A stretch of DNA of 13,894 nt from the IMG/VR virus record IMGVR_UViG_2645728091_000007, positions 1 through 13,894 of that record. The stretch is one strand, 5' to 3'. The notes under the pieces were generated by a model. That model was not told the DNA's origin. It worked only from the letters and a program-made list of their open reading frames with translations, and ran no database searches. The stretch's first letter is position 1. The number at the start of each line of letters is the position of its first letter. This DNA comes from a virus. Its lineage: Duplodnaviria; Heunggongvirae; Uroviricota; Caudoviricetes. Positions 1 through 13,894 of the stretch are shown here, piece after piece. Position numbers and translations under genes: made by a program.

Positions 1-1
1 C

Positions 2-1063
2 GGGGAGGAAGGAAACTACCGGATGGAAAGAGTCCCCCTAAAGCAGACTGACAGACATCACAAATCCCCGGGTGGGGATTTGTGTATAAGAGACAGACCA
101 GTAGCAGGGGAAAACATCCGCGATAATGCGCCAAATTTCCATAAATGGCTTGAACATGCTGCAAGAAAAGACCCGCGTAAGATGATGCGTATATGTGCCG
201 CGTTATACATGATTATGGCGAACCGCTACGACTGGCAGATGTTCATTGAGGCCACCGGAGACGGGGGAAGCGGTAAGAGTACATTTACCCATATTGCCAC
301 CCTGCTTGCTGGCAAACAGAACACCGTAAGCGCGGAGATGACATCACTCGATGATGCAGGAGGGCGCGCGCAGGTTGTCGGGAGTCGTCTTATCGTCCTT
401 GCCGATCAGCCGAAATATACGGGGGAAGGCACGGGCATCAAGAAAATCACGGGAGGCGATCCCGTTGAAATTAACCCGAAATATGAGAAGCGATTCACGA
501 CGATAATAAGGGCGGTGGTACTGGCAACCAATAACGACCCGATGATCTTTACCGAACGGGCCGGAGGTGTGTCACGCCGTCGGGTGATTTTCCGGTTCGA
601 CAACATTGTAAGGGAGGACGAAAAAGACAAGGAATTACCGGAAAAGATAGCGGCAGAAATCCCCGTAATTATCCGCCGCTTGCTGGCTAATTTTGCTGAC
701 CCTGAAAAGGCACGGGCTTTATTACTGGAACAGCGTGACGGTGATGAAGCTCTGGCAATAAAGCAGCAAACGGATCCGGTTGTTGAGCTTTGCGCGGCGC
801 TGGAGTTTCTGGAGGAAGCTCGTGGGCTAATGATGGGCGGTGGTGGTGACACCGTGAAGTACACGACCAGAAACAGCCTTTACCGTGTCTATATGGCCTT
901 CATGGCATACACAGGAAAGGGGAAATGTTTGAGCGTGAATGAGTTCGGAAAGGCTATGAGGTCAGCGGCGAAAGTTTACGGATATGAATATATTACGCGA
1001 AAAGTTAAGGGAGTCACGCAGACCAACGCAACGACTACTGATGATTGCGATGCGTTTTTATAA
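2..1063 (+). CDS. Primase-helicase, P4 alpha/D5 family, C-terminal portion (5'-partial; frame is open from the window edge)
   Basis: Walker A motif GDGGSGKST about 80 codons into the ORF, preceded by a D5_N-like segment (NFHKWLEHAARKDPRKMMRICAALYMI) and followed by a C-terminal region typical of P4-family primases. First in-frame ATG is at 23, but the frame is open from position 2. N-terminal primase domain is absent from the window. Confidence 0.7.
   Translation, partial: GEEGNYRMERVPLKQTDRHHKSPGGDLCIRDRPVAGENIRDNAPNFHKWLEHAARKDPRKMMRICAALYMIMANRYDWQMFIEATGDGGSGKSTFTHIATLLAGKQNTVSAEMTSLDDAGGRAQVVGSRLIVLADQPKYTGEGTGIKKITGGDPVEINPKYEKRFTTIIRAVVLATNNDPMIFTERAGGVSRRRVIFRFDNIVREDEKDKELPEKIAAEIPVIIRRLLANFADPEKARALLLEQRDGDEALAIKQQTDPVVELCAALEFLEEARGLMMGGGGDTVKYTTRNSLYRVYMAFMAYTGKGKCLSVNEFGKAMRSAAKVYGYEYITRKVKGVTQTNATTTDDCDAFL
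78..96 (-). mobile_element. Tn5/IS50-like 19-bp end sequence (element body would lie to the left)
   Basis: Reverse complement of 78-96 is CTGTCTCTTATACACAAAT. The first 16 nt equal the Tn5 mosaic end exactly; 17/19 match both the outside end (CTGACTCTTATACACAAGT) and the mosaic end. A 9-bp-stem palindrome CAAATCCCC-gggt-GGGGATTTG containing a SmaI site lies at 61-82. Confidence 0.3.
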
Positions 1064-1077
1064 AAAATGGCAATGGT

Positions 1078-1305
1078 TATCTACCTTGTCTACCTGACTG
1101 AAAGAAAATACTTTTATTTCAATGTATTAATGCAGGTAGATAACTATTTTTCACTGTCTACCTGTTATCTACCTTATCTACCCATTTTTGTAGACAGGTA
1201 AGGAGACGGGTAGAGATGAGGTAGACAGCTATTTGGGGCTGTCTACCTCCCTGAAACCCGCGCCATTACTGGCCTGATAACTAATCAGGTAGACAAGGTA
1301 GACAA
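1078..1305. repeat. Iteron cluster, about 11 copies of GGTAGACA / TGTCTACC in both orientations (putative ori or crr)
   Basis: Copies at about 1078, 1087, 1135, 1155, 1167, 1175, 1190, 1209, 1220, 1240, 1288 and 1297, including a direct tandem GGTAGACAAGGTAGACAAGG at 1288-1307. AT-rich context immediately downstream of the primase gene. Confidence 0.6.
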
Positions 1306-1352
1306 GGTGGTGGTGCACAAAAAACTTTTTAAACGAGGGGGTAAAAATAAAA

Positions 1353-1610
1353 ATGCACACATCAGGAAAACTGAACAAACATATAAAGCCACATTACCGC
1401 GCCCTTGATATGGCTGAACACTGGCTAAGGGTGGCGATTAAGGCAATAGACCGCAACGCCGGGGAAGGATACGCGAAAGCACATCCCGAACTGATAAGCG
1501 CATTCATGACAACGGCGGCTGCAAACTTTGCCACGCTGACCGAACGGGAGATTGCTGAAGCGGAGGAAGTGACAACAATCAATATTAAGTCCGGAGAGCT
1601 GGCAGCATGA
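1353..1610 (+). CDS. Hypothetical small protein (85 aa)
   Basis: ORF with a GAGGGGG Shine-Dalgarno about 12 nt upstream; its stop overlaps the SSB start (ATGA at 1607-1610), suggesting translational coupling. No family recognised. Confidence 0.5.
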   Translation: MHTSGKLNKHIKPHYRALDMAEHWLRVAIKAIDRNAGEGYAKAHPELISAFMTTAAANFATLTEREIAEAEEVTTINIKSGELAA

Positions 1611-2056
1611 CGGCGCAAATATCAGTTTACGGGCGGTTGGTGGACGACCCGCAGACAAAACAGACCAGCAAGGGCACCCCCATGACGCTGGCGCGTATGG
1701 CGGTATCACTGCCCTGCAGTCAGTCGGATGACGGTCTGGCGACGTTGTGGTTATCTGTCCTGGCGTTTGGCAGACAAGCCGACGCGCTGGCAAAGCATCA
1801 CAAAGGCGAACTCCTGAGCGTGGCGGGTAACATGCAGATGAGCCAGTGGACTGGACAGAACGGCGAAACGCGGCAGGGCTGGCAGGTTATCGCAGACAGC
1901 GTAATCAGTGCGCGATCGGTGCGACCGGGCGGCAAAAAAGGCCAACAGGGGCAGGCTACTGACGCACTGAACAGAGCAAAACAACAGGCAGATCAGCAAG
2001 GAAGCCAGCCACCAGAGGGAGATAATGAGCAATGGGGAGATGATATCCCGTTTTAA
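1607..2056 (+). CDS. ssb: Single-stranded DNA-binding protein
   Basis: N-terminal OB-fold-like region (ISVYGRLVDDPQ...), Q/G-rich linker, and C-terminal WGDDIPF matching the acidic tail of E. coli SSB (DFDDDIPF). Confidence 0.8.
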   Translation: MTAQISVYGRLVDDPQTKQTSKGTPMTLARMAVSLPCSQSDDGLATLWLSVLAFGRQADALAKHHKGELLSVAGNMQMSQWTGQNGETRQGWQVIADSVISARSVRPGGKKGQQGQATDALNRAKQQADQQGSQPPEGDNEQWGDDIPF

Positions 2057-2074
2057 ATATTGCCAATAAAAAAA

Positions 2075-2098
2075 GCCGGAAAAAATAAATTTTCCGGC
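2075..2098 (-). terminator. Stem-loop with a 9-bp perfect stem (GCCGGAAAA / TTTTCCGGC); looks like an intrinsic terminator on the minus strand
   Basis: On the minus strand the hairpin is followed by a run of 7 T (complement of the A-run at 2068-2074). On the plus strand no U-run follows. Sits in the SSB-capsid intergenic region. Confidence 0.3.
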
Positions 2099-2272
2099 AT
2101 GCTACATAAATCCCGACCAAAGGGAGTGAAGATATTAACACTAATTGTCCGCACTGAAGTTGTCACCCCAAAACTTTATACAACATTGCACTCGGTTGCA
2201 TGTGTTCGCATGACAAATATCGGTGATAGCATATATCCACAATTATTTTTAATGAATGCAAAGAGGATGCGT

Positions 2273-3313
2273 ATGGTTGATTTATATTCGCCTACTCAGC
2301 TTGTACAGGTAGTTAATGCTGTAGATGTACAAAAACAACTAAATGCGTTGTTTACCAGTTTGTTTTTTACTCGCTCGGTAATGTTTGAATCGCGCGATAT
2401 TATTCTTGATACAATCGACGATCCAAATATCCCAATTGCAGCGTTTTGTTCTCCTATGGTGGGTAGTAAAGTTTCACGTGACGAAGGGTACGAATCAAAA
2501 ACAATTCGTCCAGGCTATATGAAGCCGAAAAGCAGCATTGATCCAAATAAGTTAGCTGTGCGCCCTGCTGGTGTATCACCTGAGCAATACAATTCTTTTG
2601 GGGCGCGTAATATTAAAGTTAAACAGGCGATTGTAAATCAGGCTAAAGCTATTCGTGCACGTATTGAATGGCTTGCCGTTCAGGCAATCACAACGGGGAA
2701 AAATATCATTGAGGGCGATGGTATTGAACGTTATGAGCTGGACTGGAATATTAAACCACAAAATATCATCACTCAGTCTGGCGGTGCTGAGTGGTCAGGT
2801 AAGGATAAAGAAACTTTTGATCCAAATGATGATATTGATAGCTACGCAGAATTTAGTGAGGGCGTCACTAATATCATCATTATGGGCGGTAATGTATGGA
2901 AGAAATACCGTTCATTCAGAGCGATAAAAGAGGCTCTGGATACCCGTCGTGGTTCTAATTCCGAACTGGAAACGGCCCTTAAAGACCTTGGTGATTCGGT
3001 GAGTTTTAAAGGGTATATGGGCGATGTTGCGATTGTTGTATATAGCGGGCGTTATACCGACGAGGACGGAACTGAAAAACATTTCCTTGATCCTGATTTG
3101 ATGGTGCTTGGCAATACGGCTCTTCAGGGGATTGTCGCCTATGGAGGTATTCAGGATCCGGAGCTAATCCGAATGGGGCTGACTAAAGCCGAACTTGCAC
3201 CGAAAAACTATATTGTGCCTGGTGATCCGGCTATTGAATATGTGCAGACACATTCAGCACCACAGCCAATACCGGCCCGCATCAATCGTTTTGTTACCGT
3301 TCGCATTGGCTAA
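2273..3313 (+). CDS. Major capsid protein, lambda gpE family (divergent homolog, 346 aa)
   Basis: Similarity to lambda gpE along the full length (LFF near the N-terminus; QSGG.EWS..DK.T.DP.DDI; LDTRRGSNSELETA; GDVAIVVYSG). Start at 2273 chosen from the AAGAGG Shine-Dalgarno at 2261-2266 and alignment to gpE MSMY; the ORF track's upstream extension to 2060 has no homology. Confidence 0.8.
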   Translation: MVDLYSPTQLVQVVNAVDVQKQLNALFTSLFFTRSVMFESRDIILDTIDDPNIPIAAFCSPMVGSKVSRDEGYESKTIRPGYMKPKSSIDPNKLAVRPAGVSPEQYNSFGARNIKVKQAIVNQAKAIRARIEWLAVQAITTGKNIIEGDGIERYELDWNIKPQNIITQSGGAEWSGKDKETFDPNDDIDSYAEFSEGVTNIIIMGGNVWKKYRSFRAIKEALDTRRGSNSELETALKDLGDSVSFKGYMGDVAIVVYSGRYTDEDGTEKHFLDPDLMVLGNTALQGIVAYGGIQDPELIRMGLTKAELAPKNYIVPGDPAIEYVQTHSAPQPIPARINRFVTVRIG

Positions 3314-3322
3314 GGGGGAGCA

Positions 3323-3664
3323 ATGGCTACTCATTACACTGAACTCATGGCTGGCACTGAAGCACTGGTGACTACGCTGGGGATATTTTCAGCTAATAAA
3401 GGGGTAATTCCTGCATTTACGCCACTGATGCAGGAAGATGCAACAGGTGCACTGGTGGTATGGGATGGTTCGAGCGTAGGTAAAGCGGTTTATGTTTCCG
3501 CTGTACAAATCGACACCGCGAAAAAAACACAGGCTCAGGTCTATAAGACAGGTGTCTTAAATGTTGATGCTCTGAACTGGCCTGAGTCTGTTAAAGAACT
3601 GTCAGTAAAGGTTGCAGCGTTTGTTGGCTCAGGTATTTCTGTTCAGCCGCTGGCTCGTGTGTAA
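3323..3664 (+). CDS. Head decoration protein, lambda gpD family (113 aa)
   Basis: Alignable to lambda gpD (THY; TPLM; VVWDGS vs VAWDGT; YKTG vs YKSG; WPE; AF.G..IS). AAGGGGGAG Shine-Dalgarno directly after the capsid gene stop. Confidence 0.75.
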   Translation: MATHYTELMAGTEALVTTLGIFSANKGVIPAFTPLMQEDATGALVVWDGSSVGKAVYVSAVQIDTAKKTQAQVYKTGVLNVDALNWPESVKELSVKVAAFVGSGISVQPLARV

Positions 3665-3675
3665 AGGGGGATACA

Positions 3676-4059
3676 ATGCAGAATGATTACAATGACCTTA
3701 AGCCAATTGCCGAAATGATGTACCCGAATCCAGCTGTAGAGGAATTAAAAGCTATCGCTGACAAAATGTGTTTAAGCGAGCGCCTTGTTGATATGAATCA
3801 GGTGATGGAAATTACAACCCTGAGTCGTCGTACACTGCTAAACCTTGAGGCTAGTGGAGAGTTCCCGGAGCGTGTGCAGGTTACGGAAGGGCGTAAGGCC
3901 TGGTATTTAAGTGAAGTGATCGACTGGATAAATAATATTCCTCGCGCTTCTGAATATTGCCGCGTACCTGTCCCAAAAAAGCCAGATGCGGCGCTATGCC
4001 TCAAGATTGAGCGTGTACGCCGCAATGCACGGGATGGTCGCTATAAGCTGATTGGTTGA
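3676..4059 (+). CDS. AlpA-family (phage transcriptional regulator / excisionase-like) HTH protein with a ~40-aa N-terminal extension
   Basis: Segment MEITTLSRRTLLNLEASGEFPERVQVTEGRKAWYLSEVIDWINN resembles the AlpA/MerR-like HTH domain. Strong Shine-Dalgarno AAGGGGGAT before the ATG at 3676. Confidence 0.6.
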   Translation: MQNDYNDLKPIAEMMYPNPAVEELKAIADKMCLSERLVDMNQVMEITTLSRRTLLNLEASGEFPERVQVTEGRKAWYLSEVIDWINNIPRASEYCRVPVPKKPDAALCLKIERVRRNARDGRYKLIG

Positions 4060-4079
4060 TGAAATTAGGGCCCGCTCTG

Positions 4080-4149
4080 GCTGGCGGGTCCTTTCCGGTG
4101 ATCCAGAACGTTACGGGGCGGAAGGCGCGCGGGTTTTCGCTATTTATGA
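4080..4149 (+). other. Lambda-type cos site (cosQ/cosN-like) with a variant cohesive-end sequence
   Basis: GGCGGGTCCTTTCCGGTGATCC...GTTACG, then a 12-mer GGGCGGAAGGCG at 4116-4127 (lambda cosN is GGGCGGCGACCT), then CGCGGGTTTTCGCTATTTATGA matching the lambda left end as I recall it. Lies directly upstream of the Nu1-like gene. Confidence 0.6.
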
Positions 4150-4260
4150 GCATTTTAAGGGGACTGGTGGTGGTTTTGTTGTTCGCTGTATCTGTATGAA
4201 TAATAAGAGAAAAATACAATCAATACACCAACCTGAAACAGTAATTAAGTTGTGGTATCA

Positions 4261-4803
4261 ATGAAATTACACCTGATGAACAAAAAAAACATGGCAAAAA
4301 GTTGCCGTGTAAGCGCCACTGCGTTCGATAAGTGGGGAGTGATTCCCGTCGAGCGTAAGGGCCGTGAGGCGTTCTATGATGTTGCCAGTGTAATAGATAA
4401 TCGGGTTAACAATGCAATCAGCCAGATTACAAACGAAACGGGCGATATTGATGACGATGAACTTTTACGCGTCAGGATCAGATTACTGACAGCACAGGCA
4501 GAGGCGCAGGAGCTTAAAAACGAGCGCGAACGCGGCGACGTTATTGATACAGAGTTTTGTATGTATGTTCTTTCCAAACTGGCGAGTCAGATTTCATCTA
4601 TCATGGACAGCCTGCCGCTTACCATGCAAAGGCGCTTCCCACAGATGACTCCGGCTATGCTGGATGGACTTAAAAAGGAAGTGGCTAAAGCCTGTAATGC
4701 CAGTGCCGGCGTTGCTGACAACCTCCCACAGATACTGGCTGATTATCTGATGGAAAGTACAGGAAACGTACCGGATAAGTTGCAGCTGAATAAGGATAAG
4801 TAA
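4261..4803 (+). CDS. Terminase small subunit, lambda Nu1-like
   Basis: Similarity to lambda Nu1 in the middle and C-terminal parts (LTAQAEAQELKNERERGDVIDTEFCMYVLSKLASQISSIMDSLPLTMQRRFPQ vs lambda LTRAQADAQELKNARDSAEVVETAFCTFVLSRIAGEIASILDGLPLSVQRRFPE). N-terminal HTH region is divergent. Start is ambiguous: ATG at 4261, 4276 (best alignment to Nu1 MEVNKK) or GTG at 4252. Confidence 0.8.
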   Translation: MKLHLMNKKNMAKSCRVSATAFDKWGVIPVERKGREAFYDVASVIDNRVNNAISQITNETGDIDDDELLRVRIRLLTAQAEAQELKNERERGDVIDTEFCMYVLSKLASQISSIMDSLPLTMQRRFPQMTPAMLDGLKKEVAKACNASAGVADNLPQILADYLMESTGNVPDKLQLNKDK

Positions 4804-4814
4804 CGTAGTACGCT

Positions 4815-5090
4815 ATGACTGAATCCGAACTACTGAAAGTAATCTGCCATGCTGGTGGAGTCAGCCACCAGCATGACGAACAGACCACGCAGCCGGGCAG
4901 TGTCACCGCTGAAAATTACGCTCGTGTGGTTGCTGAGGTTATGTGGCGTGACGGTATAGAACTGAACGGACAGGATTGCTTAGTCATCCGCACCAAAGTG
5001 CTGGCTATACTGGCAGCTAGGCGGAGGCAGGGACAACGCCAGAACGTTGCATCGTACCAGTGGAAGAAGCCTGACAGACTGCGGCGATAA
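4815..5090 (+). CDS. Hypothetical protein (91 aa) in the position where a large terminase gene would be expected
   Basis: ORF only; no similarity to the lambda gpA N-terminus; weak RBS. Confidence 0.35.
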   Translation: MTESELLKVICHAGGVSHQHDEQTTQPGSVTAENYARVVAEVMWRDGIELNGQDCLVIRTKVLAILAARRRQGQRQNVASYQWKKPDRLRR

Positions 5091-5492
5091 CTCTTTGATT
5101 TTCTCGACGGCCCCAAAATGGGCCTTACCATAGCCAGCTAATAAATGAGCAAGCCTCAAAAGTGAGGTTTGTGGCCGTTTGGCCTATTCATATGCTAACT
5201 CGTTGATATTCCTGACGACGCAAATTTACGCCTTGTGGCTGGTAGTCGAATTGCAAATTTGCAACTCAACTATGAAACTACAGGTAGTTTGGGTAGTAAA
5301 AGCAACACACTGATTTTGGGGCTTCTTCGCGATACCTAATATTATGGTATCGGTGGAAGAGATATCGTTTCTCATAGGTTAGCACCGAGGGCGGAGTTCC
5401 GCCCTCATCGAAAAATTGCTTACGAGTCGTCAAAATAAATTAATCGACTGAGTATAATGATTAACTAATTGCTCGTGTTACTTCATTATACG

Positions 5493-6254
5493 TTATTTCC
5501 CATCTTTAAGGTTTAACCAAGTGTTAATTAAAAAAAGAGCCATTGAACCTGATAAATTTACTGCAAGTTCGGCATGCCTTGGGGATGGCTTAATTGATGA
5601 GCTGTTCGTTCCATGTGCATCACCGAGTTTATTACGAAGAGTACCTAACCCATTTACAACTGCAGAACAACCGCCGAGAATTTGTTTGAAGATATTTTCA
5701 GTATGTTGGTCGGCAGATAGGTTAAGTTCTTTTGAAAGAGTTTTATAAAGCTCTGACATTTCAATATTTTTATTATTATACTGAATGCCCATATCATCAA
5801 GAATGTGTTTGCAAACTGTTTCAAGAAGTGTTCTTGCGGAGGTTATCGCACCATCCGGATCTGTATGGCGCCGTTCAAGTGCTTTTATCCAAACGGCGTG
5901 GACTCCATCCTCGTTAAACTTTCTTAATACATCAGATATGTCTTCATCCGCTGGAGCTTTATTTTTCCCTTCTAGATAGTCCAGCATCGGCTGAAATGCC
6001 TTATAAATCAAATCTCTCCGGGGGGCATACTTTTCAGTCTTTTTTATAAATCCCCAAAATTCTTTTAGTGAGCGATTAGTTCTCACAAACTCTGGTAATA
6101 GCTGATGTAAAGGAGGATTTTGTAAGAAATATGTTCTTAGAAGCAAATAATCATTATTAGCTTCATCCTGGGCTCCTGTAGCTCTTGCAATTAGTATGTT
6201 TTGAAGCGCTACTGCGCGCTCTAGGTCATTTTGAAGGGTATCTATAATATTCAT
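5493..6254 (-). CDS. Abortive-infection-like protein with a C-terminal HEPN-type Rx6H motif (Abi_C-like)
   Basis: 253-aa ORF on the minus strand. C-terminal GTLRNKLGDAHG fits the HEPN Rx4-6H motif and my recollection of Abi_C-family proteins. AT-rich gene flanked by noncoding DNA, consistent with acquired cargo. Confidence 0.5.
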   Translation of the reverse strand: MNIIDTLQNDLERAVALQNILIARATGAQDEANNDYLLLRTYFLQNPPLHQLLPEFVRTNRSLKEFWGFIKKTEKYAPRRDLIYKAFQPMLDYLEGKNKAPADEDISDVLRKFNEDGVHAVWIKALERRHTDPDGAITSARTLLETVCKHILDDMGIQYNNKNIEMSELYKTLSKELNLSADQHTENIFKQILGGCSAVVNGLGTLRNKLGDAHGTNSSSIKPSPRHAELAVNLSGSMALFLINTWLNLKDGK

Positions 6255-6314
6255 AACAAATCTTTATTCACTTCATTTGTGGGTTGATAATTGAATGGTT
6301 TGTACATTGATTTC

Positions 6315-6337
6315 TGTGTATTGCAGTGTGTATTGCA
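6315..6337. repeat. Tandem direct repeat TGTGTATTGCA(G) x2 in the putative promoter region of the Abi-like gene
   Basis: TGTGTATTGCAG followed by TGTGTATTGCAA at 6315-6337, upstream of the minus-strand start at 6254. Confidence 0.3.
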
Positions 6338-6427
6338 ACATAGCCATTCAGGTAGAGATTATGCTCTATTTTTCCTCTTATATCATTCACATACTTACAC
6401 CATTGACTCATGTAACCCAAGCATGAG

Positions 6428-7204
6428 GTGAATCCGCAGATGACCCTGCGTCGCCTGCCGGATGAAGATCCGCAGAATCTGGCGGACCCGGCTTACCGCC
6501 GCCGTCGCATCATCCTGCAGAACATGCGTGACGAGGAGCTGGCCATTGCCCAGGTCGAAGAGATGCAGGCCGTTTCTGCCGTGCTTAAGGGCAAATACAC
6601 CATGACCGGTGAAGCCTTCGATCCGGTTGAGGTGGATATGGGCCGCAGTGCGGCGAATAACATCACGCAGTCCGGCGGCACGGAGTGGAGTAAGCGTGAT
6701 AAGTCCACGTATGACCCGACCGACGATATCGAAGCCTACGCGCTGAACGCCAGCGGTGTGGTGAATATCATCGTGTTTGATCCGAAAGGCTGGGCGCTGT
6801 TCCGTTCCTTCAAAGCCGTCAGGGAGAAGCTGGATACCCGTCGCGGCTCTCATTCCGAACTGGAGACAGCGGTAAAAGACCTGGGCAAAGCGGTGTCTTA
6901 TAAGGGAATGTATGGCGATGTGGCCATCGTCGTGTATTCCGGACAGTACGTGGAAAATGGTGTCAAAAAGAACTTCCTGCCGGACAACACGATGGTGCTG
7001 GGCAACACTCAGGCACGCGGTCTGCGCACCTATGGCTGCATTCAGGATGCGGACGCACAGCGCGAAGGCATTAACGCCTCTGCCCGTTACCCGAAAAACT
7101 GGGTGACCACCGGCGATCCGGCGCGTGAGTTCACCATGATTCAGTCAGCACCGCTGATGCTGCTGGCTGACCCTGATGCGTTCGTGTCCGTACAACTGGC
7201 GTAA
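6428..7204 (+). pseudogene. E: Major capsid protein gpE, 5'-truncated (C-terminal ~260 codons, lambda-like)
   Basis: Translation matches lambda gpE from about residue 82 (NPQMTLRRLPDEDPQNLADPAYRRRRI...) to the C-terminus (...FVSVQLA). In-frame upstream codons KHE are preserved but a TAA occurs at 6413-6415 and homology ends near 6410. The N-terminal ~80 codons are missing. Confidence 0.8.
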
Positions 7205-7206
7205 TC

Positions 7207-7224
7207 ATGGCCCTTCGGGGCCAT
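7207..7224 (+). other. Stem-loop ATGGCCC-TTCG-GGGCCAT after the E stop, followed by a T-rich tract
   Basis: Perfect 7-bp stem with a TTCG tetraloop; matches the E-FI intergenic hairpin of lambda as I recall it. Confidence 0.5.
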
Positions 7225-7245
7225 TTTCTCTCTGTGGAGGAGTCC

Positions 7246-7641
7246 ATGACGAAAGATGAACTGATTGCCCGTCTTCAGGTGCTGGGTGAGCAACTGAACC
7301 GTGATGTCAGCCTGACGGGGACGAAAGAAGAACTGGCGCTCCGTGTGGCAGAGCTGGAAGAGGAGCTTGATGACACGGATGACGCTGCCGGTCAGGACAC
7401 GTCTGTCAGCCCGGAAAATGCGCTGACCGGGCATGAAAATGAGGTGGTGTCAGCGCAGCCGGGTACCGTGACTGATACGGCTGATCTGGTCACGGTTGTG
7501 GCACTGGTGACGCTGCATACTGATGCACTTCACGCCACGCGGGATGAGGCTGTGGCATTTGTGCTGCCGGGAACGGCGTTCCGTGTTTCTGCCAGTGTGG
7601 CAGCCGAAATGACAGAACATGGCCTGGCCAGAATGCAATAA
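7246..7641 (+). CDS. FI: DNA packaging / head assembly protein FI
   Basis: MTKDELIARLQ...GLARMQ matches lambda gpFI. GGAGGA Shine-Dalgarno at 7236-7241. The ORF-track start at 7207 is an upstream in-frame extension. Confidence 0.85.
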   Translation: MTKDELIARLQVLGEQLNRDVSLTGTKEELALRVAELEEELDDTDDAAGQDTSVSPENALTGHENEVVSAQPGTVTDTADLVTVVALVTLHTDALHATRDEAVAFVLPGTAFRVSASVAAEMTEHGLARMQ

Positions 7642-7652
7642 CGGGAGGCGCT

Positions 7653-8006
7653 GTGGCTGATTTCGATAACCTGTTCGATGCTGCCATTGCCCGCGCCGAT
7701 GAAACGATACGCGGGTACATGGGAACGTCAGCCACCATGACATCCGGTGAGCAGTCCGGCGCAGTAATACGTGGTGTTTTTGATGACCCTGAAAATATCA
7801 GCTATGCCGGACAGGGCGTGCGTGTTGAAGGCTCCAGCCCGTCCCTGTTTGTCCGGACTGATGATGTGCGGCAGCTGCGGCGCGGCGACACGCTGACCAT
7901 CGGTGAGGAAAACTTCTGGATAGACCGGATTTCACCGGATGATGGCGGAAGCTGTCATCTCTGGCTTGGGCGTGGCGTACCGCCTGCCGTTAACCGTCGC
8001 CGCTGA
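7653..8006 (+). CDS. FII: Head-tail joining protein FII
   Basis: GTG start with GGGAGG Shine-Dalgarno; MADFDNLFDAAIARADETIRGYMG... matches lambda gpFII (117 aa). Confidence 0.9.
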   Translation: MADFDNLFDAAIARADETIRGYMGTSATMTSGEQSGAVIRGVFDDPENISYAGQGVRVEGSSPSLFVRTDDVRQLRRGDTLTIGEENFWIDRISPDDGGSCHLWLGRGVPPAVNRRR

Positions 8007-8017
8007 AAGGGGGATGT

Positions 8018-8596
8018 ATGGCCATAAAAGGTCTTGAGCAGGCCGTTGAAAACCTCAGCCGTATCAGCAAAACGGCAGTGCCCGGTGCCGCCGCAATGGC
8101 CATTAACCGCGTGGCCACAACCGCAATAAAGCAGTCGGCGTCACAGGTTGCCCGTGAGACAAAGGTACGCCGGAAACTGGTAAAGGAAAGGGCCAGGCTG
8201 AAAAGGGCCACGGTCAAAAATCCGCAGGCCAGAATCAAGGTTAACCGGGGGGATTTGCCCGTAATCAAGCTGGGGAATGCGCGGGTTGTCCTGTCCCGCC
8301 GCAGGCGTCGTAAAAAGGGGCAGCGTTCATCCCTGAAAGGTGGCGGCAGCGTGCTTGTGGTGGGAAACCGTCGTATTCCCGGCGCGTTTATTCAGCAACT
8401 GAAAAATGGCCGGTGGCATGTCATGCAGCGTGTGGCCGGGAAAAACCGTTACCCCATTGATGTGGTGAAAATCCCGATGGCGGTGCCGCTGACCACGGCG
8501 TTTAAACAGAATATTGAACAGATACGGCGTGAACGTTTGCCGAAAGAACTGGAATACGCCCTGAAACAACAACTGAGGATTGCGATAAAGCGATGA
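8018..8596 (+). CDS. Z: Tail completion protein Z
   Basis: 192 aa, MAIKGLEQAVENLSRISKTAVPGAAAMAINRVA... matches lambda gpZ. AAGGGGGAT Shine-Dalgarno. Confidence 0.9.
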   Translation: MAIKGLEQAVENLSRISKTAVPGAAAMAINRVATTAIKQSASQVARETKVRRKLVKERARLKRATVKNPQARIKVNRGDLPVIKLGNARVVLSRRRRRKKGQRSSLKGGGSVLVVGNRRIPGAFIQQLKNGRWHVMQRVAGKNRYPIDVVKIPMAVPLTTAFKQNIEQIRRERLPKELEYALKQQLRIAIKR

Positions 8597-8988
8597 AACA
8601 TACTGAACTCCGTGCAGCCGTACTGGATGCACTGGAGAAGCATGACACCGGGGCGACGCTTTTTGATGGTCGCCCCGCTGTTTTTGATGAGGCGGATTTT
8701 CCGGCAGTTGCCGTTTATCTCACCGGCGCTGAATACACGGGCGAAGAGCTGGACAGCGATACCTGGCAGGCGGAGCTGCATATCGAAGTTTTCCTGCCTG
8801 CTCAGGTGCCGGATTCAGAGCTGGATTCGTGGATGGAGTCCCGGATTTATCCGGTGATGAGCGATATCCCGGCACTGTCAGATTTGATCACCAGTATGGT
8901 GGCCAGCGGCTATGACTACCGGCGCGACGATGATGCGGGCCTGTGGAGTTCAGCCGATCTGACTTATGTCATTACCTATGAAATGTGA
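8593..8988 (+). CDS. U: Tail terminator protein U
   Basis: 131 aa, [22 protein letters not shown]... matches lambda gpU. ATGA overlap with the Z stop. Confidence 0.9.
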
Positions 8989-8995
8989 GGACGCT

Positions 8996-9736
8996 ATGCC
9001 TGTACCAAATCCTGTAATGCCGGTGAAAGGTGCCGGGACCACCCTGTGGGTTTATAAGGGGAGCGGTGACCCTTATGCGAACCCGCTTTCAGACGTTGAC
9101 TGGTCGCGTCTGGCAAAAGTTAAAGACCTGACGCCCGGCGAACTGACCGCTGAGTCCTATGACGACAGCTATCTCGATGATAAAGATGCAGACTGGACTG
9201 CGACCGGGCAGGGGCAGAAATCTGCCGGAGATACCAGCTTCACGCTGGCGTGGATGCCCGGAGAGCAGGGGCAGCAGGCGCTGCTGGCGTGGTTTAATGA
9301 AGGTGATACCCGTGCCTATAAAATCCGCTTCCCGAACGGCACGGTCGATGTGTTCCGTGGCTGGGTCAGCAGTATCGGTAAGGCGGTGACGGCGAAGGAA
9401 GTGATCACCCGCACGGTGAAAGTCACCAATGTGGGACGTCCGTCGATGGCAGAAGATCGCAGCACGGTAACAGCGGCCACCGGCATGACGGTAACGCCAG
9501 CCAGTGCTTCCGTAGTGAAAGGGCAGAGCACTACGCTGACCGTGGCATTCCAGCCGGAGGGCGTAACCGACAAGAGCTTTCGTGCGGTGTCTGCGGATAA
9601 AACAAAAGCCACCGTGTCGGTCAGTGGTATGACCATCACCGTGAACGGCGTTGCTGCAGGCAAGGTCAACATTCCGGTTGTATCCGGTAATGGTGAGTTT
9701 GCTGCGGTTGCAGAAATTACCGTCACCGCCAGTTAA
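8996..9736 (+). CDS. V: Major tail protein V
   Basis: [36 protein letters not shown]... matches lambda gpV (246 aa), including the C-terminal Ig-like region. GAGGA Shine-Dalgarno; the ORF-track start at 8966 is an upstream extension overlapping U. Confidence 0.9.
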
Positions 9737-9751
9737 TCCGGAGAGTCAGCG

Positions 9752-10174
9752 ATGTTCCTGAAAACCGAATCATTTGAACATAACGGTGTGACCGTCACGC
9801 TTTCTGAACTGTCAGCCCTGCAGCGTATTGAGCATCTTGCCTGGTTGAAAGAGCAGGAAAAAAAGGCTGAATCCAGTGGCAACCTGCAGGTGTCTGTAGA
9901 GGATCTTATCAGAGGCGGGGCGTTTCTGGTGGCGATGTCTCTGTGGCATAACCATCCGCAGAAGACAAAGCTGCCGTCCATGAATGAAGCCATTACGCAG
10001 ATTGAGCAGGAAGTGCTTACCACCTGGCCCACGGAGGCAATTGCTCAGGCTGAAAACGTGGTGTTACGTCTGTCCGGAATGTCTGAGTTTGTGGTGAATA
10101 ATGCCCCTGAACAGGCAGAGGACGCCGGGCCTGCAGAGCCTGTTTCTGCGGGAAAGTGTTCGACGGTGAGCTGA
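9752..10174 (+). CDS. G: Tail assembly chaperone G
   Basis: 140 aa, MFLKTESFEHNGVTVTLSELSALQRIEHLA... ending ...PVSAGKCSTVS as in lambda gpG. Middle region differs from lambda at several residues. Confidence 0.9.
   Translation: MFLKTESFEHNGVTVTLSELSALQRIEHLAWLKEQEKKAESSGNLQVSVEDLIRGGAFLVAMSLWHNHPQKTKLPSMNEAITQIEQEVLTTWPTEAIAQAENVVLRLSGMSEFVVNNAPEQAEDAGPAEPVSAGKCSTVS
10150..10156 (+). promoter_or_regulatory. Programmed -1 ribosomal frameshift slippery heptamer G GGA AAG (G into T frame)
   Basis: Heptamer GGGAAAG lies in the G zero frame as G-GGA-AAG near the 3' end of G. The T frame (10156-10590) is -1 relative to G and has no start codon of its own with an RBS. Confidence 0.85.
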
Positions 10175-10590
10175 GTTTTGCCCTGAAACTGGCGCGCGAG
10201 ATGGGGCGACCCGACTGGCGCGCCATGCTTGCCGGGATGTCATCCACGGAGTATGCCGACTGGCACCGCTTTTACAGTACCCATTATTTTCATGATGTTC
10301 TGCTGGATATGCACTTTTCCGGGCTGACGTACACCGTGCTCAGCCTGTTTTTCAGCGATCCGGATATGCATCCGCTGGATTTCAGTCTGCTGAACCGGCG
10401 TGAGGCTGACGAAGAGCCTGAAGATGATGTGCTGATGCAGAAAGCGGCAGGGCTTGCCGGAGGTGTCCGCTTTGGCCCGGACGGGAATGAAGTTATCCCC
10501 GCTTCCCCGGATGTGGCGGACATGACGGAGGATGACGTAATGCTGATGACAGTATCAGAAGGGATCGCAGGAGGAGTCCGGTATGGCTGA
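10156..10590 (+). CDS. T: Tail assembly protein T segment, expressed as a G-T fusion by -1 frameshifting (fusion would span 9752-10590)
   Basis: Translation FDGELSFALKLAREMGRPDWRAMLAGMSSTEYADWHRFYSTHYFHD... matches lambda gpT; frame is -1 relative to G. Confidence 0.85.
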   Translation: MFDGELSFALKLAREMGRPDWRAMLAGMSSTEYADWHRFYSTHYFHDVLLDMHFSGLTYTVLSLFFSDPDMHPLDFSLLNRREADEEPEDDVLMQKAAGLAGGVRFGPDGNEVIPASPDVADMTEDDVMLMTVSEGIAGGVRYG

Positions 10591-13144
10591 ACCGGTAGGC
10601 GATCTGGTCGTTGATTTGAGTCTGGATGCGGCCAGATTTGACGAGCAGATGGCCAGAGTCAGGCGTCATTTTTCCGGTACGGAAAGTGATGCGAAAAAAA
10701 CAGCGGCAGTCGTTGAACAGTCAATGAACCGGCAGGCGCTGGCTGCACAGAAAGCGGGGATTTCCGTCGGGCAGTATAAAGCCGCCATGCGTATGCTGCC
10801 TGCACAGTTCACCGACGTGGCCACGCAGCTTGCAGGCGGGCAAAGTCCGTGGCTGATCCTGCTGCAACAGGGGGGTCAGGTTAAGGACTCCTTCGGCGGG
10901 ATGATCCCCATGTTCAGGGGGCTTGCCGGTGCGATCACCCTGCCGATGGTGGGGGCCACCTCGCTGGCGGTGGCGACCGGTGCGCTGGCGTATGCCTGGT
11001 ATCAGGGCAACTCAACCCTGTCCGATTTCAACAAAACGCTGGTCCTTTCCGGCAATCAGGCGGGACTGACGGCAGATCGTATGCTGGTCCTGTCCAGAGC
11101 CGGGCAGGCGGCAGGGCTGACGTTTAACCAGACCAGCGAGTCACTCAGCGCACTGGTTAAGGCGGGGGTAAGCGGTGAGGCTCAGATTGCGTCCATCAGC
11201 CAGAGTGTGGCGCGTTTCTCCTCTGCATCCGGCGTGGAGGTGGACAAGGTCGCTGAAGCCTTCGGGAAGCTGACCACAGACCCGACGTCGGGGCTGACGG
11301 CGATGGCACGCCAGTTCCATAACGTGACGGCGGAGCAGATTGCGTATGTTGCTCAGTTGCAGCGTTCCGGCGATGAAGCCGGGGCATTGCAGGCGGCGAA
11401 CGAGGCCGCAACGAAAGGGTTTGATGACCAGACCCGCCGCCTGAAAGAGAACATGGGCACGCTGGAGACCTGGGCAGACAGGACTGCGCGGGCATTCAAA
11501 TCCATGTGGGATGCGGTGCTGGATATTGGTCGTCCTGATACCGCGCAGGAGATGCTGATTAAGGCAGAGGCTGCGTTTAAGAAAGCAGACGACATCTGGA
11601 ATCTGCGCAAGGATGATTATTTTGTTAACGATGAAGCGCGGGCGCGTTACTGGGATGATCGTGAAAAGGCCCGTCTTGCGCTTGAAGCCGCCCGAAAGAA
11701 GGCTGAGCAGCAGACTCAACAGGACAAAAATGCGCAGCAGCAGAGCGATACCGAAGCGTCACGGCTGAAATATACCGAAGAGGCGCAGAAGGCTTACGAA
11801 CGGCTGCAGACGCCGCTGGAGAAATATACCGCCCGTCAGGAAGAACTGAACAAGGCACTGAAAGACGGGAAAATCCTGCAGGCGGATTACAACACGCTGA
11901 TGGCGGCGGCGAAAAAGGATTATGAAGCGACGCTGAAAAAGCCGAAACAGTCCGGCGTGAAGGTGTCTGCGGGCGATCGTCAGGAAGACAGTGCTCATGC
12001 TGCCCTGCTGACGCTTCAGGCAGAACTCCGGACGCTGGAGAAGCATGCCGGAGCAAATGAGAAAATCAGCCAGCAGCGCCGGGATTTGTGGAAGGCGGAG
12101 AGTCAGTTCGCGGTACTGGAGGAGGCGGCGCAACGTCGCCAGCTGTCTGCACAGGAGAAATCCCTGCTGGCGCATAAAGATGAGACGCTGGAGTACAAAC
12201 GCCAGCTGGCTGCACTTGGCGACAAGGTTACGTATCAGGAGCGCCTGAACGCGCTGGCGCAGCAGGCGGATAAATTCGCACAGCAGCAACGGGCAAAACG
12301 GGCCGCCATTGATGCGAAAAGCCGGGGGCTGACTGACCGGCAGGCAGAACGGGAAGCCACGGAACAGCGCCTGAAGGAACAGTATGGCGATAATCCGCTG
12401 GCGCTGAATAACGTCATGTCAGAGCAGAAAAAGACCTGGGCGGCTGAAGACCAGCTTCGCGGGAACTGGATGGCAGGCCTGAAGTCCGGCTGGAGTGAGT
12501 GGGAAGAGAGCGCCACGGACAGTATGTCGCAGGTAAAAAGTGCTGCCACGCAGACCTTTGATGGTATTGCACAGAATATGGCGGCGATGCTGACCGGCAG
12601 TGAGCAGAACTGGCGCAGCTTCACCCGTTCCGTGCTGTCCATGATGACAGAAATTCTGCTTAAGCAGGCAATGGTGGGGATTGTCGGGAGTATCGGCAGC
12701 GCCATTGGCGGGGCTGTTGGTGGCGGCGCATCCGCGTCAGGCGGTACAGCCATTCAGGCCGCTGCGGCGAAATTCCATTTTGCAACCGGAGGATTTACGG
12801 GAACCGGCGGCAAATATGAGCCAGCGGGGATTGTTCACCGTGGTGAGTTTGTCTTCACGAAGGAGGCAACCAGCCGGATTGGCGTGGGGAATCTTTACCG
12901 GCTGATGCGCGGCTATGCCACCGGCGGTTATGTCGGTACACCGGGCAGCATGGCAGACAGCCGGTCGCAGGCGTCCGGGACGTTTGAGCAGAATAACCAT
13001 GTGGTGATTAACAACGACGGCACGAACGGGCAGATAGGTCCGGCTGCTCTGAAGGCGGTGTATGACATGGCCCGCAAGGGTGCCCGTGATGAAATTCAGA
13101 CACAGATGCGTGATGGTGGCCTGTTCTCCGGAGGTGGACGATGA
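10583..13144 (+). CDS. H: Tail tape measure protein H
   Basis: 853 aa, MAEPVGDLVVDLSLDAARFDEQMARVRRHF... matches lambda gpH in length and sequence. AGGAGGA Shine-Dalgarno. Confidence 0.95.
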   Translation: MAEPVGDLVVDLSLDAARFDEQMARVRRHFSGTESDAKKTAAVVEQSMNRQALAAQKAGISVGQYKAAMRMLPAQFTDVATQLAGGQSPWLILLQQGGQVKDSFGGMIPMFRGLAGAITLPMVGATSLAVATGALAYAWYQGNSTLSDFNKTLVLSGNQAGLTADRMLVLSRAGQAAGLTFNQTSESLSALVKAGVSGEAQIASISQSVARFSSASGVEVDKVAEAFGKLTTDPTSGLTAMARQFHNVTAEQIAYVAQLQRSGDEAGALQAANEAATKGFDDQTRRLKENMGTLETWADRTARAFKSMWDAVLDIGRPDTAQEMLIKAEAAFKKADDIWNLRKDDYFVNDEARARYWDDREKARLALEAARKKAEQQTQQDKNAQQQSDTEASRLKYTEEAQKAYERLQTPLEKYTARQEELNKALKDGKILQADYNTLMAAAKKDYEATLKKPKQSGVKVSAGDRQEDSAHAALLTLQAELRTLEKHAGANEKISQQRRDLWKAESQFAVLEEAAQRRQLSAQEKSLLAHKDETLEYKRQLAALGDKVTYQERLNALAQQADKFAQQQRAKRAAIDAKSRGLTDRQAEREATEQRLKEQYGDNPLALNNVMSEQKKTWAAEDQLRGNWMAGLKSGWSEWEESATDSMSQVKSAATQTFDGIAQNMAAMLTGSEQNWRSFTRSVLSMMTEILLKQAMVGIVGSIGSAIGGAVGGGASASGGTAIQAAAAKFHFATGGFTGTGGKYEPAGIVHRGEFVFTKEATSRIGVGNLYRLMRGYATGGYVGTPGSMADSRSQASGTFEQNNHVVINNDGTNGQIGPAALKAVYDMARKGARDEIQTQMRDGGLFSGGGR

Positions 13145-13470
13145 AGACCTTCCGCTGGAAAGTGAAACCCGGTATGGATGTGGCTTCGGTCCCTTCTGTA
13201 AGAAAGGTGCGCTTTGGTGATGGCTATTCTCAGCGAGCGCCTGCCGGGCTGAATGCCAACCTGAAAACGTACAGCGTGACGCTTTCTGTCCCCCGTGAGG
13301 AGGCCACGGTACTGGAGTCGTTTCTGGAAGAGCACGGGGGCTGGAAAGCCTTTCTGTGGACGCCGCCTTATGAGTGGCGGCAGATAAAGGTGACCTGCGC
13401 AAAATGGTCGTCGCGGGTCAGTATGTTGCGTGTTGAGTTCAGCGCAGAGTTTGAACAGGTGGTGAACTGA
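13141..13470 (+). CDS. M: Tail tip assembly protein M
   Basis: 109 aa, MKTFRWKVKPGMDVASVPSVRKVRFGDGYSQRAPAGLNANLK... matches lambda gpM. ATGA overlap with the H stop. Confidence 0.9.
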   Translation: MKTFRWKVKPGMDVASVPSVRKVRFGDGYSQRAPAGLNANLKTYSVTLSVPREEATVLESFLEEHGGWKAFLWTPPYEWRQIKVTCAKWSSRVSMLRVEFSAEFEQVVN

Positions 13471-13894
13471 TGCAGGATATCCGGCAGGAAACACTGAATG
13501 AATGCACCCGTGCGGAGCAGTCTGCCAGCGTGGTGCTCTGGGAAATCGACCTGACAGAGGTCGGTGGAGAACGTTATTTTTTCTGTAATGAGCAGAACGA
13601 AAAAGGTGAGCCGGTCACCTGGCAGGGGCGACAGTATCAGCCGTATCCCATTCAGGGGAGCGGTTTTGAACTGAATGGCAAAGGCACCAGTACGCGCCCC
13701 ACGCTGACGGTTTCTAACCTGTACGGTATGGTCACCGGGATGGCGGAAGATCTGCAGAGTCTGGTCGGCGGAACGGTGGTCCGGCGTAAGGTTTACGCCC
13801 GTTTTCTGGATGCGGTGAACTTCGTCAACGGAAACAGTTACGCCGATCCGGAGCAGGAGGTGATCAGCCGCTGGCGCATTGAGCAGTGCAGCGA
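13470..13894 (+). CDS. L: Tail tip protein L (3'-partial; runs off the window end)
   Basis: ATG at 13470 overlaps the M stop by 1 nt. Translation MQDIRQETLNECTRAEQSASVVLWEIDLTEVGGERYFFCNEQNEKGEP... matches the lambda gpL N-terminus. Not in the ORF track because no stop is reached. Confidence 0.9.
   Translation, partial: MQDIRQETLNECTRAEQSASVVLWEIDLTEVGGERYFFCNEQNEKGEPVTWQGRQYQPYPIQGSGFELNGKGTSTRPTLTVSNLYGMVTGMAEDLQSLVGGTVVRRKVYARFLDAVNFVNGNSYADPEQEVISRWRIEQCS

Follow-up and report, generated by a model that had tools for sequence, protein, structure and literature searches.

The stretch analyzed here, a window of 13,894 nt that makes up positions 1 to 13,894 of the virus record IMGVR_UViG_2645728091_000007, carries the right two-thirds of an ~11 kb phage satellite with its own pair of shell genes: a major capsid gene of the lambda E family and, directly behind it, a head decoration gene of the gpD type. 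The satellite proteins are referred to below as E' (capsid protein), D' (decoration protein) and TerS' (small terminase). The element is almost certainly a helper-embedded member (HE-PICI '11capE', site E:Phage_cap_E_80) of the Gram-negative phage-inducible chromosomal islands (PICIs), residing inside the E gene of a lambda-like prophage. Both the element type (Tommasini, Mageeney and Williams 2023, PMC10111431), of which the window is a further instance, and the finding that enterobacterial PICIs can carry genes for capsid and decoration proteins have been published before. New in this work are a satellite-specific E' clade, a constant E'-D' linkage (seen in all 13 loci, which cover seven kinds of integration site) and strong purifying selection along both proteins. 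E' and D' are intact, constrained capsid and cement genes of a satellite lineage, kept across the PICIs of Enterobacterales at any site. These results sharpen the question of why a parasite of ~11 kb devotes 1.4 kb to a capsid/cement pair that shows no phenotype in standard transfer and interference assays. The function of the pair bears on the way in which lambdoid phages are exploited by a satellite class that is very common, and on how capsid-forming satellites arose.

E' is encoded at positions 2273-3313 on the + strand, where an AAGAGGA Shine-Dalgarno sequence precedes the ATG of a reading frame of 346 aa. The protein matches the Pfam family Phage_cap_E (PF03864, 7.8e-41) over its full length, covering profile positions 4-327 of 329, and the PHROG family 'major head protein' at 1e-88. 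Its matches in the PDB include the CFT073 crystal structure 3BQW ("putative capsid protein of prophage", 3.8e-121) and lambda gpE (6.5e-76). An AlphaFold2 (AF2) model of E' (pLDDT 83, pTM 0.83) has the HK97 fold, with template modeling (TM) scores of 0.90 to 3BQW, 0.87 to monomeric lambda gpE (7SJ5) and 0.83 to procapsid gpE (7VI9), and the superpositions on gpE and 3BQW span essentially the entire chain (346-351 columns). The sole low-confidence stretch of the model, residues ~55-72, is presumed to be the tip of the E-loop. The alignment with lambda E is collinear over the full length at 41% identity, and because it contains no insertion or deletion of more than 5 aa, both the N-arm and the E-loop are present in E'. 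The original prediction, made from the sequence alone, had named a lambda-E-family capsid gene together with a gpD-like decoration gene and had suggested this comparison with gpE; the Pfam, PHROG and PDB matches and the E' model agree with both assignments.

E' represents a satellite-specific capsid clade. It is 41% identical to lambda E and to the interrupted helper E, 54% identical to c1499 of the PICI EcCICFT073, and 83% identical to its counterpart in the MEW tRNA-Pro PICI; the highest identity to any phage capsid protein among 50,697 phage records is likewise 41%. When a set of 5.8 billion proteins was searched with E', identities ran continuously from 99% to 50% (768 to 351 bits) and then fell to phage-type proteins at no more than 43% identity and 283 bits. 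The 45 PICI-type cluster representatives were monophyletic in a neighbour-joining tree of capsid proteins, from which one chimeric sequence had been removed. The low identity to the interrupted E, the absence of a closer relative in the phage records and the monophyly of the clade rule out that E' was recently acquired from the helper at hand.

The ratio of nonsynonymous to synonymous substitution rates (dN/dS) is 0.09 for E', at a dS of 1.2, and 0.095 for D', compared with 0.25 between lambda E and a myovirus E; constraint on both satellite proteins is thus at least equal to that seen in this phage comparison. Conservation was also profiled along an alignment of 66 sequences (37 PICI-type and 29 phage-type capsid proteins), in which the PICI-type mean of 0.70 tracks the phage-type mean of 0.71 along the whole protein, the first 100 residues among them. 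E' and helper E have a patch of 105-135 nt in common that was considered as a trace of gene conversion, but its 74-77% nucleotide identity and longest exact run of 14-17 nt reveal nothing beyond shared protein constraint. A separate observation concerns one metagenome scaffold (L018, 2801-3829; P0044), on which genes B-C-D are followed by a hybrid of lambda E (residues 1 to ~222) with the C-terminal third of E', and then by D'. The crossover of this hybrid lies inside a 17-nt identical stretch. It occurs in none of 5,426 complete E. coli genomes and may be a chimera produced by assembly or a rare recombinant of phage and satellite.

D' (positions 3323-3664, + strand, 113 aa) is a head decoration, or cement, protein of the gpD/SHP family, as supported by matches to Pfam HDPD (PF02924, 4.5e-15) and PHROG 'head decoration' (1e-25). 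In the PDB, nearly its whole length is matched by phage-21 SHP (4.7e-16 over residues 8-107) and lambda gpD (1e-11). Its identity amounts to 37-39% with lambda and helper D, 55% with c1500 of EcCICFT073 and 95% with the protein of the MEW tRNA-Pro PICI. The order of the two reading frames, E' and then D', is opposite to the D-then-E order of lambda, as had been predicted. After the E' stop codon TAA (3311-3313) comes GGGGGAG, and the ATG of D' begins 9 nt later. Translational linkage of the two genes, also part of the original prediction, is plausible on the strength of this junction. All 8 loci in which the junction was examined (8 of 8) have it equally tight, at -1 to 14 nt.

The cassette was surveyed in 13 loci, forming 78 locus pairs and representing seven kinds of integration site. 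D' directly follows E' in every locus, at a distance of -1 to 14 nt, and both genes are intact in all 13. The identities of E' and D' co-vary over the locus pairs (r = 0.91). In each locus, the pair stands downstream of a replication gene within an int-AlpA island of ~10-12 kb, although the replication gene itself varies between a D5 primase, DUF927 and AAA_25. The position beside a replication module, first noted in the window, recurs in these loci, and CFT073 has the same layout of primase, SSB, E' and D'. A scan of the genome collection with the E' alignment and strict peptide patterns yielded 4 loci. The E'-D' allele group of the window was found in 395 of the 5,426 complete E. coli genomes (~7%), and Tommasini et al. 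(PMC10111431) report a capsid gene for 21 of 29 reference PICIs. One match resembling an E+D fusion (P0088), which suggested an E-then-D order in a phage, proved to be D-then-E in a normal phage head module.

The islands that carry E'-D' occupy a lambda-type E gene, a lambda-type portal gene, a P2-like tail module, fis, positions at or beside tRNA-Pro, cspD/clpS, and a position next to roxA. For instance, an island of Edwardsiella tarda (L010, 765-12681) lies in a lambda-type portal gene with helper D and E intact downstream, and a Salmonella island (L015) lies within a P2-like tail module. An E'-D'-HTH-TerS' module (HTH, helix-turn-helix), at 96-97% nucleotide identity, is found in chromosomal PICIs at cspD/clpS without surrounding phage genes. 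Because ordinary chromosomal PICIs share this module, the cassette is not an adaptation to interrupting E, and a role for E' solely as a backup of the interrupted E is ruled out as the origin of the cassette by its presence at the fis, tRNA-Pro, cspD/clpS, roxA, portal and P2-like tail sites. In a Lelliottia island at fis (L012, 10001-12752), the late zone reads E'-D'-S49 head protease, which is the lambda order C-D-E reversed and in the same orientation. This protease is 50-57% identical to helper proteases, and the late zone suggests that these satellites have gained or lost head genes step by step.

The island of the window was inserted by site-specific recombination at codon ~80-82 of a lambda-like prophage E gene, and it shares the orientation of the late operon. 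Its closest E. coli relative, in strain STEC711 (L001), is 98-99% identical at the nucleotide level across window positions 1400-13894 and displays the full arrangement. To the left of the STEC711 island are the lambda-type genes nohD(Nu1)-A-W-B-C(S49)-D, followed by an 82-codon 5' fragment of E. The island itself, ~11.1 kb in length, consists of genes for an integrase, an HTH protein, regulatory proteins, primase, SSB, capsid, decoration, HTH, TerS and Abi, in this order. To its right come the remaining 3' fragment of the E gene, then FI and the genes for the tail. By sequence comparison, the two E fragments joined together make a full lambda-like E.

In the window, the attR core at the satellite/helper E junction falls at positions 6416-6423, as determined by comparing attR with attL of STEC711 and with lambda E, and it coincides with a jump in GC content from 0.39 to 0.56 (0.39-0.50 before ~6400 and 0.53-0.61 beyond). 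attL (L001 ~8885) and attR contain a common short core around AAGCA in ...AAGCCGAAGCA|TGAGGTGAAT..., and attL, attR and lambda E are aligned at ...AAGCCGAAGCA|TGAGGTG.... A doubled TGTATTGC motif, typical of HE-PICI attachment (att) arms, is present on the + strand at 6317-6336 as an exact match to TGTATTGCAGTGTGTATTGC, for which no chance occurrence is expected. The doubled tgTGTATTGCantgTGTATTGCa motif lies ~85-90 bp upstream of the crossover, its end being ~84 bp before the attR core, and both motif and spacing are as described previously (PMC10111431). The same embedding was observed in Cedecea (L008) and Kosakonia (L009), in E genes 59-91% identical to lambda E, so that the complete split gene is visible in three loci including STEC711. 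The integrase falls beyond the window; in relatives with the same right half, a tyrosine integrase, 84-89% identical between genera, adjoins attL. The identical Abi-attR-E junction was found in 40 complete E. coli genomes, and at least 80% of the window is covered by one place in 160 E. coli genomes.

Helper sequence begins at the junction. A 3' fragment of lambda-type E (6416-7204, + strand, codons ~80-341) covers Pfam profile positions 94-328 and is nearly identical to lambda E residues 80-341; the PGAP label for its equivalent is 'major capsid protein, missing N-terminus'. It is followed at 7207-13470 (+ strand) by the helper late genes FI, FII, Z, U, V, G, T, H and M in lambda order, assigned from the reading frames and from the annotation of the collinear STEC711 region. 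The second lambda-type E fragment of the original prediction is therefore real but is not a satellite gene: it is the attR side, the 3' part, of the helper E that island integration cut at codon ~80-82. Near the start of this fragment (6425-6442), a GAGGTGA sequence is followed 8 nt on by an in-frame ATG, the Met of ...NPQMTL.... Speculatively, an N-terminally truncated helper E could in principle be translated from here while the island is integrated.

The published survey lists 491 helper-embedded islands at 14 late-gene sites, and 201 instances at the lambda-type E site. After induction of 11capE the composite excises and replicates, whereas the satellite itself leaves late, and precise excision restoring the helper gene was seen experimentally (PMC10111431). 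Features of PICIs are evident in the island of the window and its relatives, with pri followed by ori, genes that share one direction except for the AbiJ-like gene, a length of ~11.1 kb and no portal, tail or lysis genes. The description of the element as a satellite with its own shell genes but without portal, protease or large terminase (TerL) stands, as does the absence of a portal, protease or scaffold gene next to the capsid gene within the island; the embedding in helper E had been missed. The island also has a cos-like site and TerS' of its own.

The same arrangement bears on whether E' and D' could belong to a conventional head operon that was rearranged, or to decaying prophage debris. 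In relatives, a portal, a protease, D and an E fragment do occur ~11 kb upstream, as such a reading would expect. However, these genes, as part of Nu1-A-W-B-C-D and the first 82 codons of E, lie upstream of the integrase, outside the window, and belong to the interrupted helper, and integrase, AlpA, regulatory genes, primase, ori and SSB stand between them and E'-D'. E' is too distant from the E gene that the island interrupts (41%), its module recurs in the cspD/clpS PICIs with no phage genes nearby, and both reading frames are intact and under purifying selection. A rearranged head operon is ruled out on these grounds, and the probability that we leave to this class of explanations as a whole is negligible.

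As to the role of the pair, we tentatively favor, with somewhat less than even confidence, a mechanism in which E' and D' function as shell and cement proteins, are supplied to head assembly driven by the helper, and go unneeded under the conditions of laboratory assays. Both proteins would be made during late growth of the helper, either from an activator-type promoter of the island or by late read-through from the helper, and would enter head assembly run by the helper portal, protease/scaffold and TerL. The satellite would thereby own a supply of the two most abundant head proteins, superfluous as long as the helper provides ample E and D, and of use where these are late, limiting or defective. 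In the composite, E' is the only intact capsid gene of the late transcription unit until the island excises. Satellite concatemers would be cut at the satellite's own cos by TerS' together with helper gpA, and by arithmetic, with EcCICFT073 packaging as the model, four island copies (4 x ~11 kb, about 44 kb) would fill a head of lambda size. A shell-building role is preferred to that of an inhibitor or a relic because constraint extends over the whole fold, the co-evolving cement protein is obligatory and a protease is occasionally gained.

Several points weigh against this mechanism. Transfer of EcCICFT073 by its resident helper, lambda or phi80 does not require the homologues, with no phenotype for c1499 (PMC6092414), and virions of 11capE/50icd were not detected (PMC10111431). 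Being only 41% identical to helper E, E' may not be compatible with the helper's Nu3 scaffold and its portal. PICIs in which E is left whole carry the cassette just as well, so backing up E was not its original role. Finally, pure redundancy is a weak explanation for purifying selection that is strong and long-lasting.

The best experimental point of reference is EcCICFT073, whose capsid (c1499) and head-decoration (c1500) genes were noted by Fillol-Salom 2018 (PMC6092414; PDB 3BQW). They form the same pair in the same order and at the same position after pri-ori-SSB, and c1499 shares the fold of E' (TM 0.90) at the identities given above. The two islands differ in that EcCICFT073 is chromosomal, next to roxA in the roxA/phoQ region, whereas the island of the window lies inside a prophage; EcCICFT073 uses RppA, and the window island has a Nu1-type TerS. 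The third gene of EcCICFT073, c1501, is unrelated to the AlpA-like gene of the window. Deletion of c1499 or c1500 changed neither satellite transfer nor lambda interference, and the packaged DNA was all phage-sized (PMC6092414). When the post-ori genes of EcCICFT073 were overexpressed, only c1503 (RppA) blocked lambda, and its deletion fully restored plaques (PMC6739421). In the mechanism that we favor, the null phenotype of the deletions would be explained by redundancy with plentiful helper E and D.

These experiments bear on the idea that E', D' or both are dominant-negative subunits that poison the heads of the helper or of competing lambdoid phages, as a satellite-borne defence. Satellites often interfere with helper assembly, a capsid protein only 41% identical to that of the helper could co-assemble badly, and the island bears other defence cargo in the form of an AbiJ-like gene. 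The lowered plaquing of lambda nevertheless traced to c1503 alone among the post-ori genes, loss of c1499 or c1500 brought no relief, and an inhibitor would require no decoration protein that evolves along with it and no even constraint across the HK97 fold. Interference through E' or D' is accordingly judged very improbable. The functions proposed originally for the pair, whether capsid-forming, size-remodelling or dominant-negative, are all unsupported by the work on these homologues, which are 54-55% identical to E' and D'.

Strong selection combined with the lack of a phenotype in two assays could also point to a non-structural role, such as a decoy or trigger for capsid-sensing immunity, a regulator or chaperone of helper head proteins, or a role confined to a natural helper or host. 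No positive evidence favors such a role: neither E' nor D' has a PADLOC match, and the conservation pattern of E' is that of an ordinary capsid protein. We regard it as quite unlikely.

The main rival possibility is that E' and D' build satellite-specific shells on the helper portal, protease and scaffold, shells that are smaller than those of the helper or are preferred by TerS'-gpA, which would make the island a partly capsid-forming PICI. Consistent with this, the constrained and complete capsid protein is always paired with its co-evolving cement protein, the E' clade is old and confined to satellites, the Lelliottia member has a head protease of its own, and the sub-clade of the window has its own cos and Nu1-type TerS. 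There are precedents in the Ccm pentons of small SaPIbov5 capsids (PMC8569155) and in PmCI172, which combines a capsid homologue with small heads (PMC6092414). On the other side, EcCICFT073 packaged only phage-sized DNA with lambda and lost no transfer without c1499 or c1500 (PMC6092414), and no 11capE particles were seen (PMC10111431). Four copies of an ~11.1 kb island fit a lambda-size head, and the sequence of E' predicts no different triangulation (T) number. We consider satellite-specific shells unlikely on balance.

One specific version has E'/D' shells assembled on the helper portal and scaffold, either with a smaller T number that suits a single ~11 kb genome or with a preference by TerS'-gpA, while the embedding keeps the helper's rival shell protein silent until the head machinery has served the satellite; we doubt this version as well, at a level that leaves it only a small chance. 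Lambda E mutations can reportedly bypass gpFI, a finding attributed to Murialdo and Tzamtzis in 1997. This bypass suggests an effect of the shell protein on the docking of terminase, and the packaging-preference variant has no other basis. Should satellites indeed own their shells, PICIs with E'-D' would form an evolutionary bridge between classical PICIs and capsid-forming PICIs (cf-PICIs).

Comparison with other satellites helps to place the cassette. Ccm of SaPIbov5 (Hawkins 2021, PMC8569155) is similarly encoded by a cos-type satellite and is a homologue of the helper major capsid protein. In contrast to the c1499 homologue, for which no such effect is seen, Ccm forms pentons, shrinks the capsid and causes interference; it lacks a paired decoration protein and belongs to an unrelated lineage in a Gram-positive host. 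The cf-PICIs, for example EcCIEDL933 (10.1101/2022.09.08.507074), share the int-alpA-rep backbone and the possession of head genes. They encode capsid, protease, portal, connectors, HNH, TerS and TerL, whereas the window island has only capsid, decoration and TerS, and none of the remaining cf-PICI set (own portal, protease, head-tail connectors, TerL) was found in it. Lambda gpE/gpD and phage 21 SHP belong to the same Pfam families and have the same folds, with collinear full-length alignments; relative to lambda (41% for E and 37% for D), the gene order is reversed and the pair is satellite-borne beside replication genes.

The published 11capE (PMC10111431) is the closest counterpart of the island, being ~11 kb in size, inserted in a lambda-type E at codon ~80 and co-oriented with the late operon. 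It also carries an E-family capsid gene of its own, the doubled TGTATTGC arm motif and the succession of integration, regulatory, replication and late zones. As published, however, 11capE is without terS and shares 258 bp at 90% with the helper cos, whereas the window island has a Nu1-family TerS and 73 nt at 84%. The presence of TerS' in an 11capE-type island reflects either a late-zone variant, with TerS' replacing Rpp, or a difference in annotation. The window island further differs in its primase mosaic (positions 1-1400 are unlike STEC711) and in the AbiJ-like cargo at its right end.

The replication module lies directly upstream of E', in agreement with the original prediction, and consists of a primase, an iteron-type origin, a small reading frame and SSB. 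The primase/D5-type replication protein is represented by its C-terminal part (23-1063, + strand; Pfam DUF5906 3e-10 and Pox_D5 3e-4), as the window start cuts the gene. This C-terminus is ~90% identical in amino acid sequence to those of EcCICFT073 and the MEW PICI, and positions 1-1400 have no match in the STEC711 island, which is 98-99% identical elsewhere; the replication module is therefore mosaic. Just 3' of pri, at 1072-1305, dense GTCTACCT / ATCTACC units in direct and inverted orientation (repeat families D2, D5 and D12; inverted pairs I1-I3) presumably form the satellite ori, a position that matches the ori of Gram-negative PICIs as described (PMC6092414). They are followed on the + strand by a small conserved open reading frame (ORF) in the ORF listing (1353-1610) and by the satellite SSB (1607-2056; Pfam SSB 2.1e-15). 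Between SSB and E', at 2075-2098, there is a perfect 9-bp GC-rich hairpin, GCCGGAAAA...TTTTCCGGC. Its A-run flank on the + strand gives a terminator score for the - strand only, where no gene is evident.

Upstream of the E'-D' operon, at 2186-2234 on the + strand, a conserved element comprises three TTGCAY repeats in 10-bp phase (2186-2211) and, starting 11 nt after them, TGATAGCAT, which resembles an extended -10 region (~2223-2231). The element is located ~70-100 nt upstream of E', both here and at seven other loci (eight loci in five genera), and the repeat is usually the sole copy per ~20 kb locus. Judged by this conserved sequence and position, it is probably an activator-dependent promoter of the operon. 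Its ATTGCA core resembles the att-arm TGTATTGC motif, although the spacing differs. A scan for consensus sigma-70 promoters upstream of E' found no match, and an Rfam scan of the whole window found no family above threshold.

The late zone of the island reads E'-D'-AlpA-like HTH-cos-Nu1-type TerS', with E' and D' as its first two genes. The AlpA-like HTH protein (3676-4059, + strand), the third gene of the triad, matches Pfam Phage_AlpA (7.6e-9) and PHROG 2790 'excisionase and transcriptional regulator' (1e-49), and it is kept after D' in loci L003, L006-L009, L014, L015, L019 and L020. The cos-like site follows at 4084-4156, with 83.6% identity over 73 nt to the STEC711 helper cos and a by-eye check against the lambda left end. 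At the position of the 12-nt overhang it has GGGCGGAAGGCG (4116-4127) where lambda and the helper have GGGCGGCGACCT; the cosQ/cosN flanks resemble those of the helper, whereas the cosB side is unrelated. The exact lambda cosN was not found in the window, and the variant was recovered by alignment.

TerS' (4261-4803, + strand) is a Nu1-family small terminase (Pfam Phage_Nu1 1.1e-24; PHROG TerS 3e-53). Compared with lambda and helper Nu1, it has the full Nu1 length, a similar C-terminal half and a diverged DNA-binding part at the N-terminus; gpA is bound by the C-terminal half of Nu1 (PMC6739421). An assignment of TerS' as an Rpp protein was considered and is not supported, given the full length, the Pfam Nu1 match and the lack of any PDB match at E <0.1 although the RppC structure is solved. 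A small ORF (4815-5090, + strand; ORF listing) comes next. At the right end of the island, which is variable among relatives, a low-GC block contains an AbiJ-like abortive-infection gene (5493-6254, - strand; Pfam Abi_C 1.3e-23, PADLOC AbiJ 2.2e-21). The gene is oriented opposite to all other island genes and, judging from these matches, is likely anti-phage accessory cargo.

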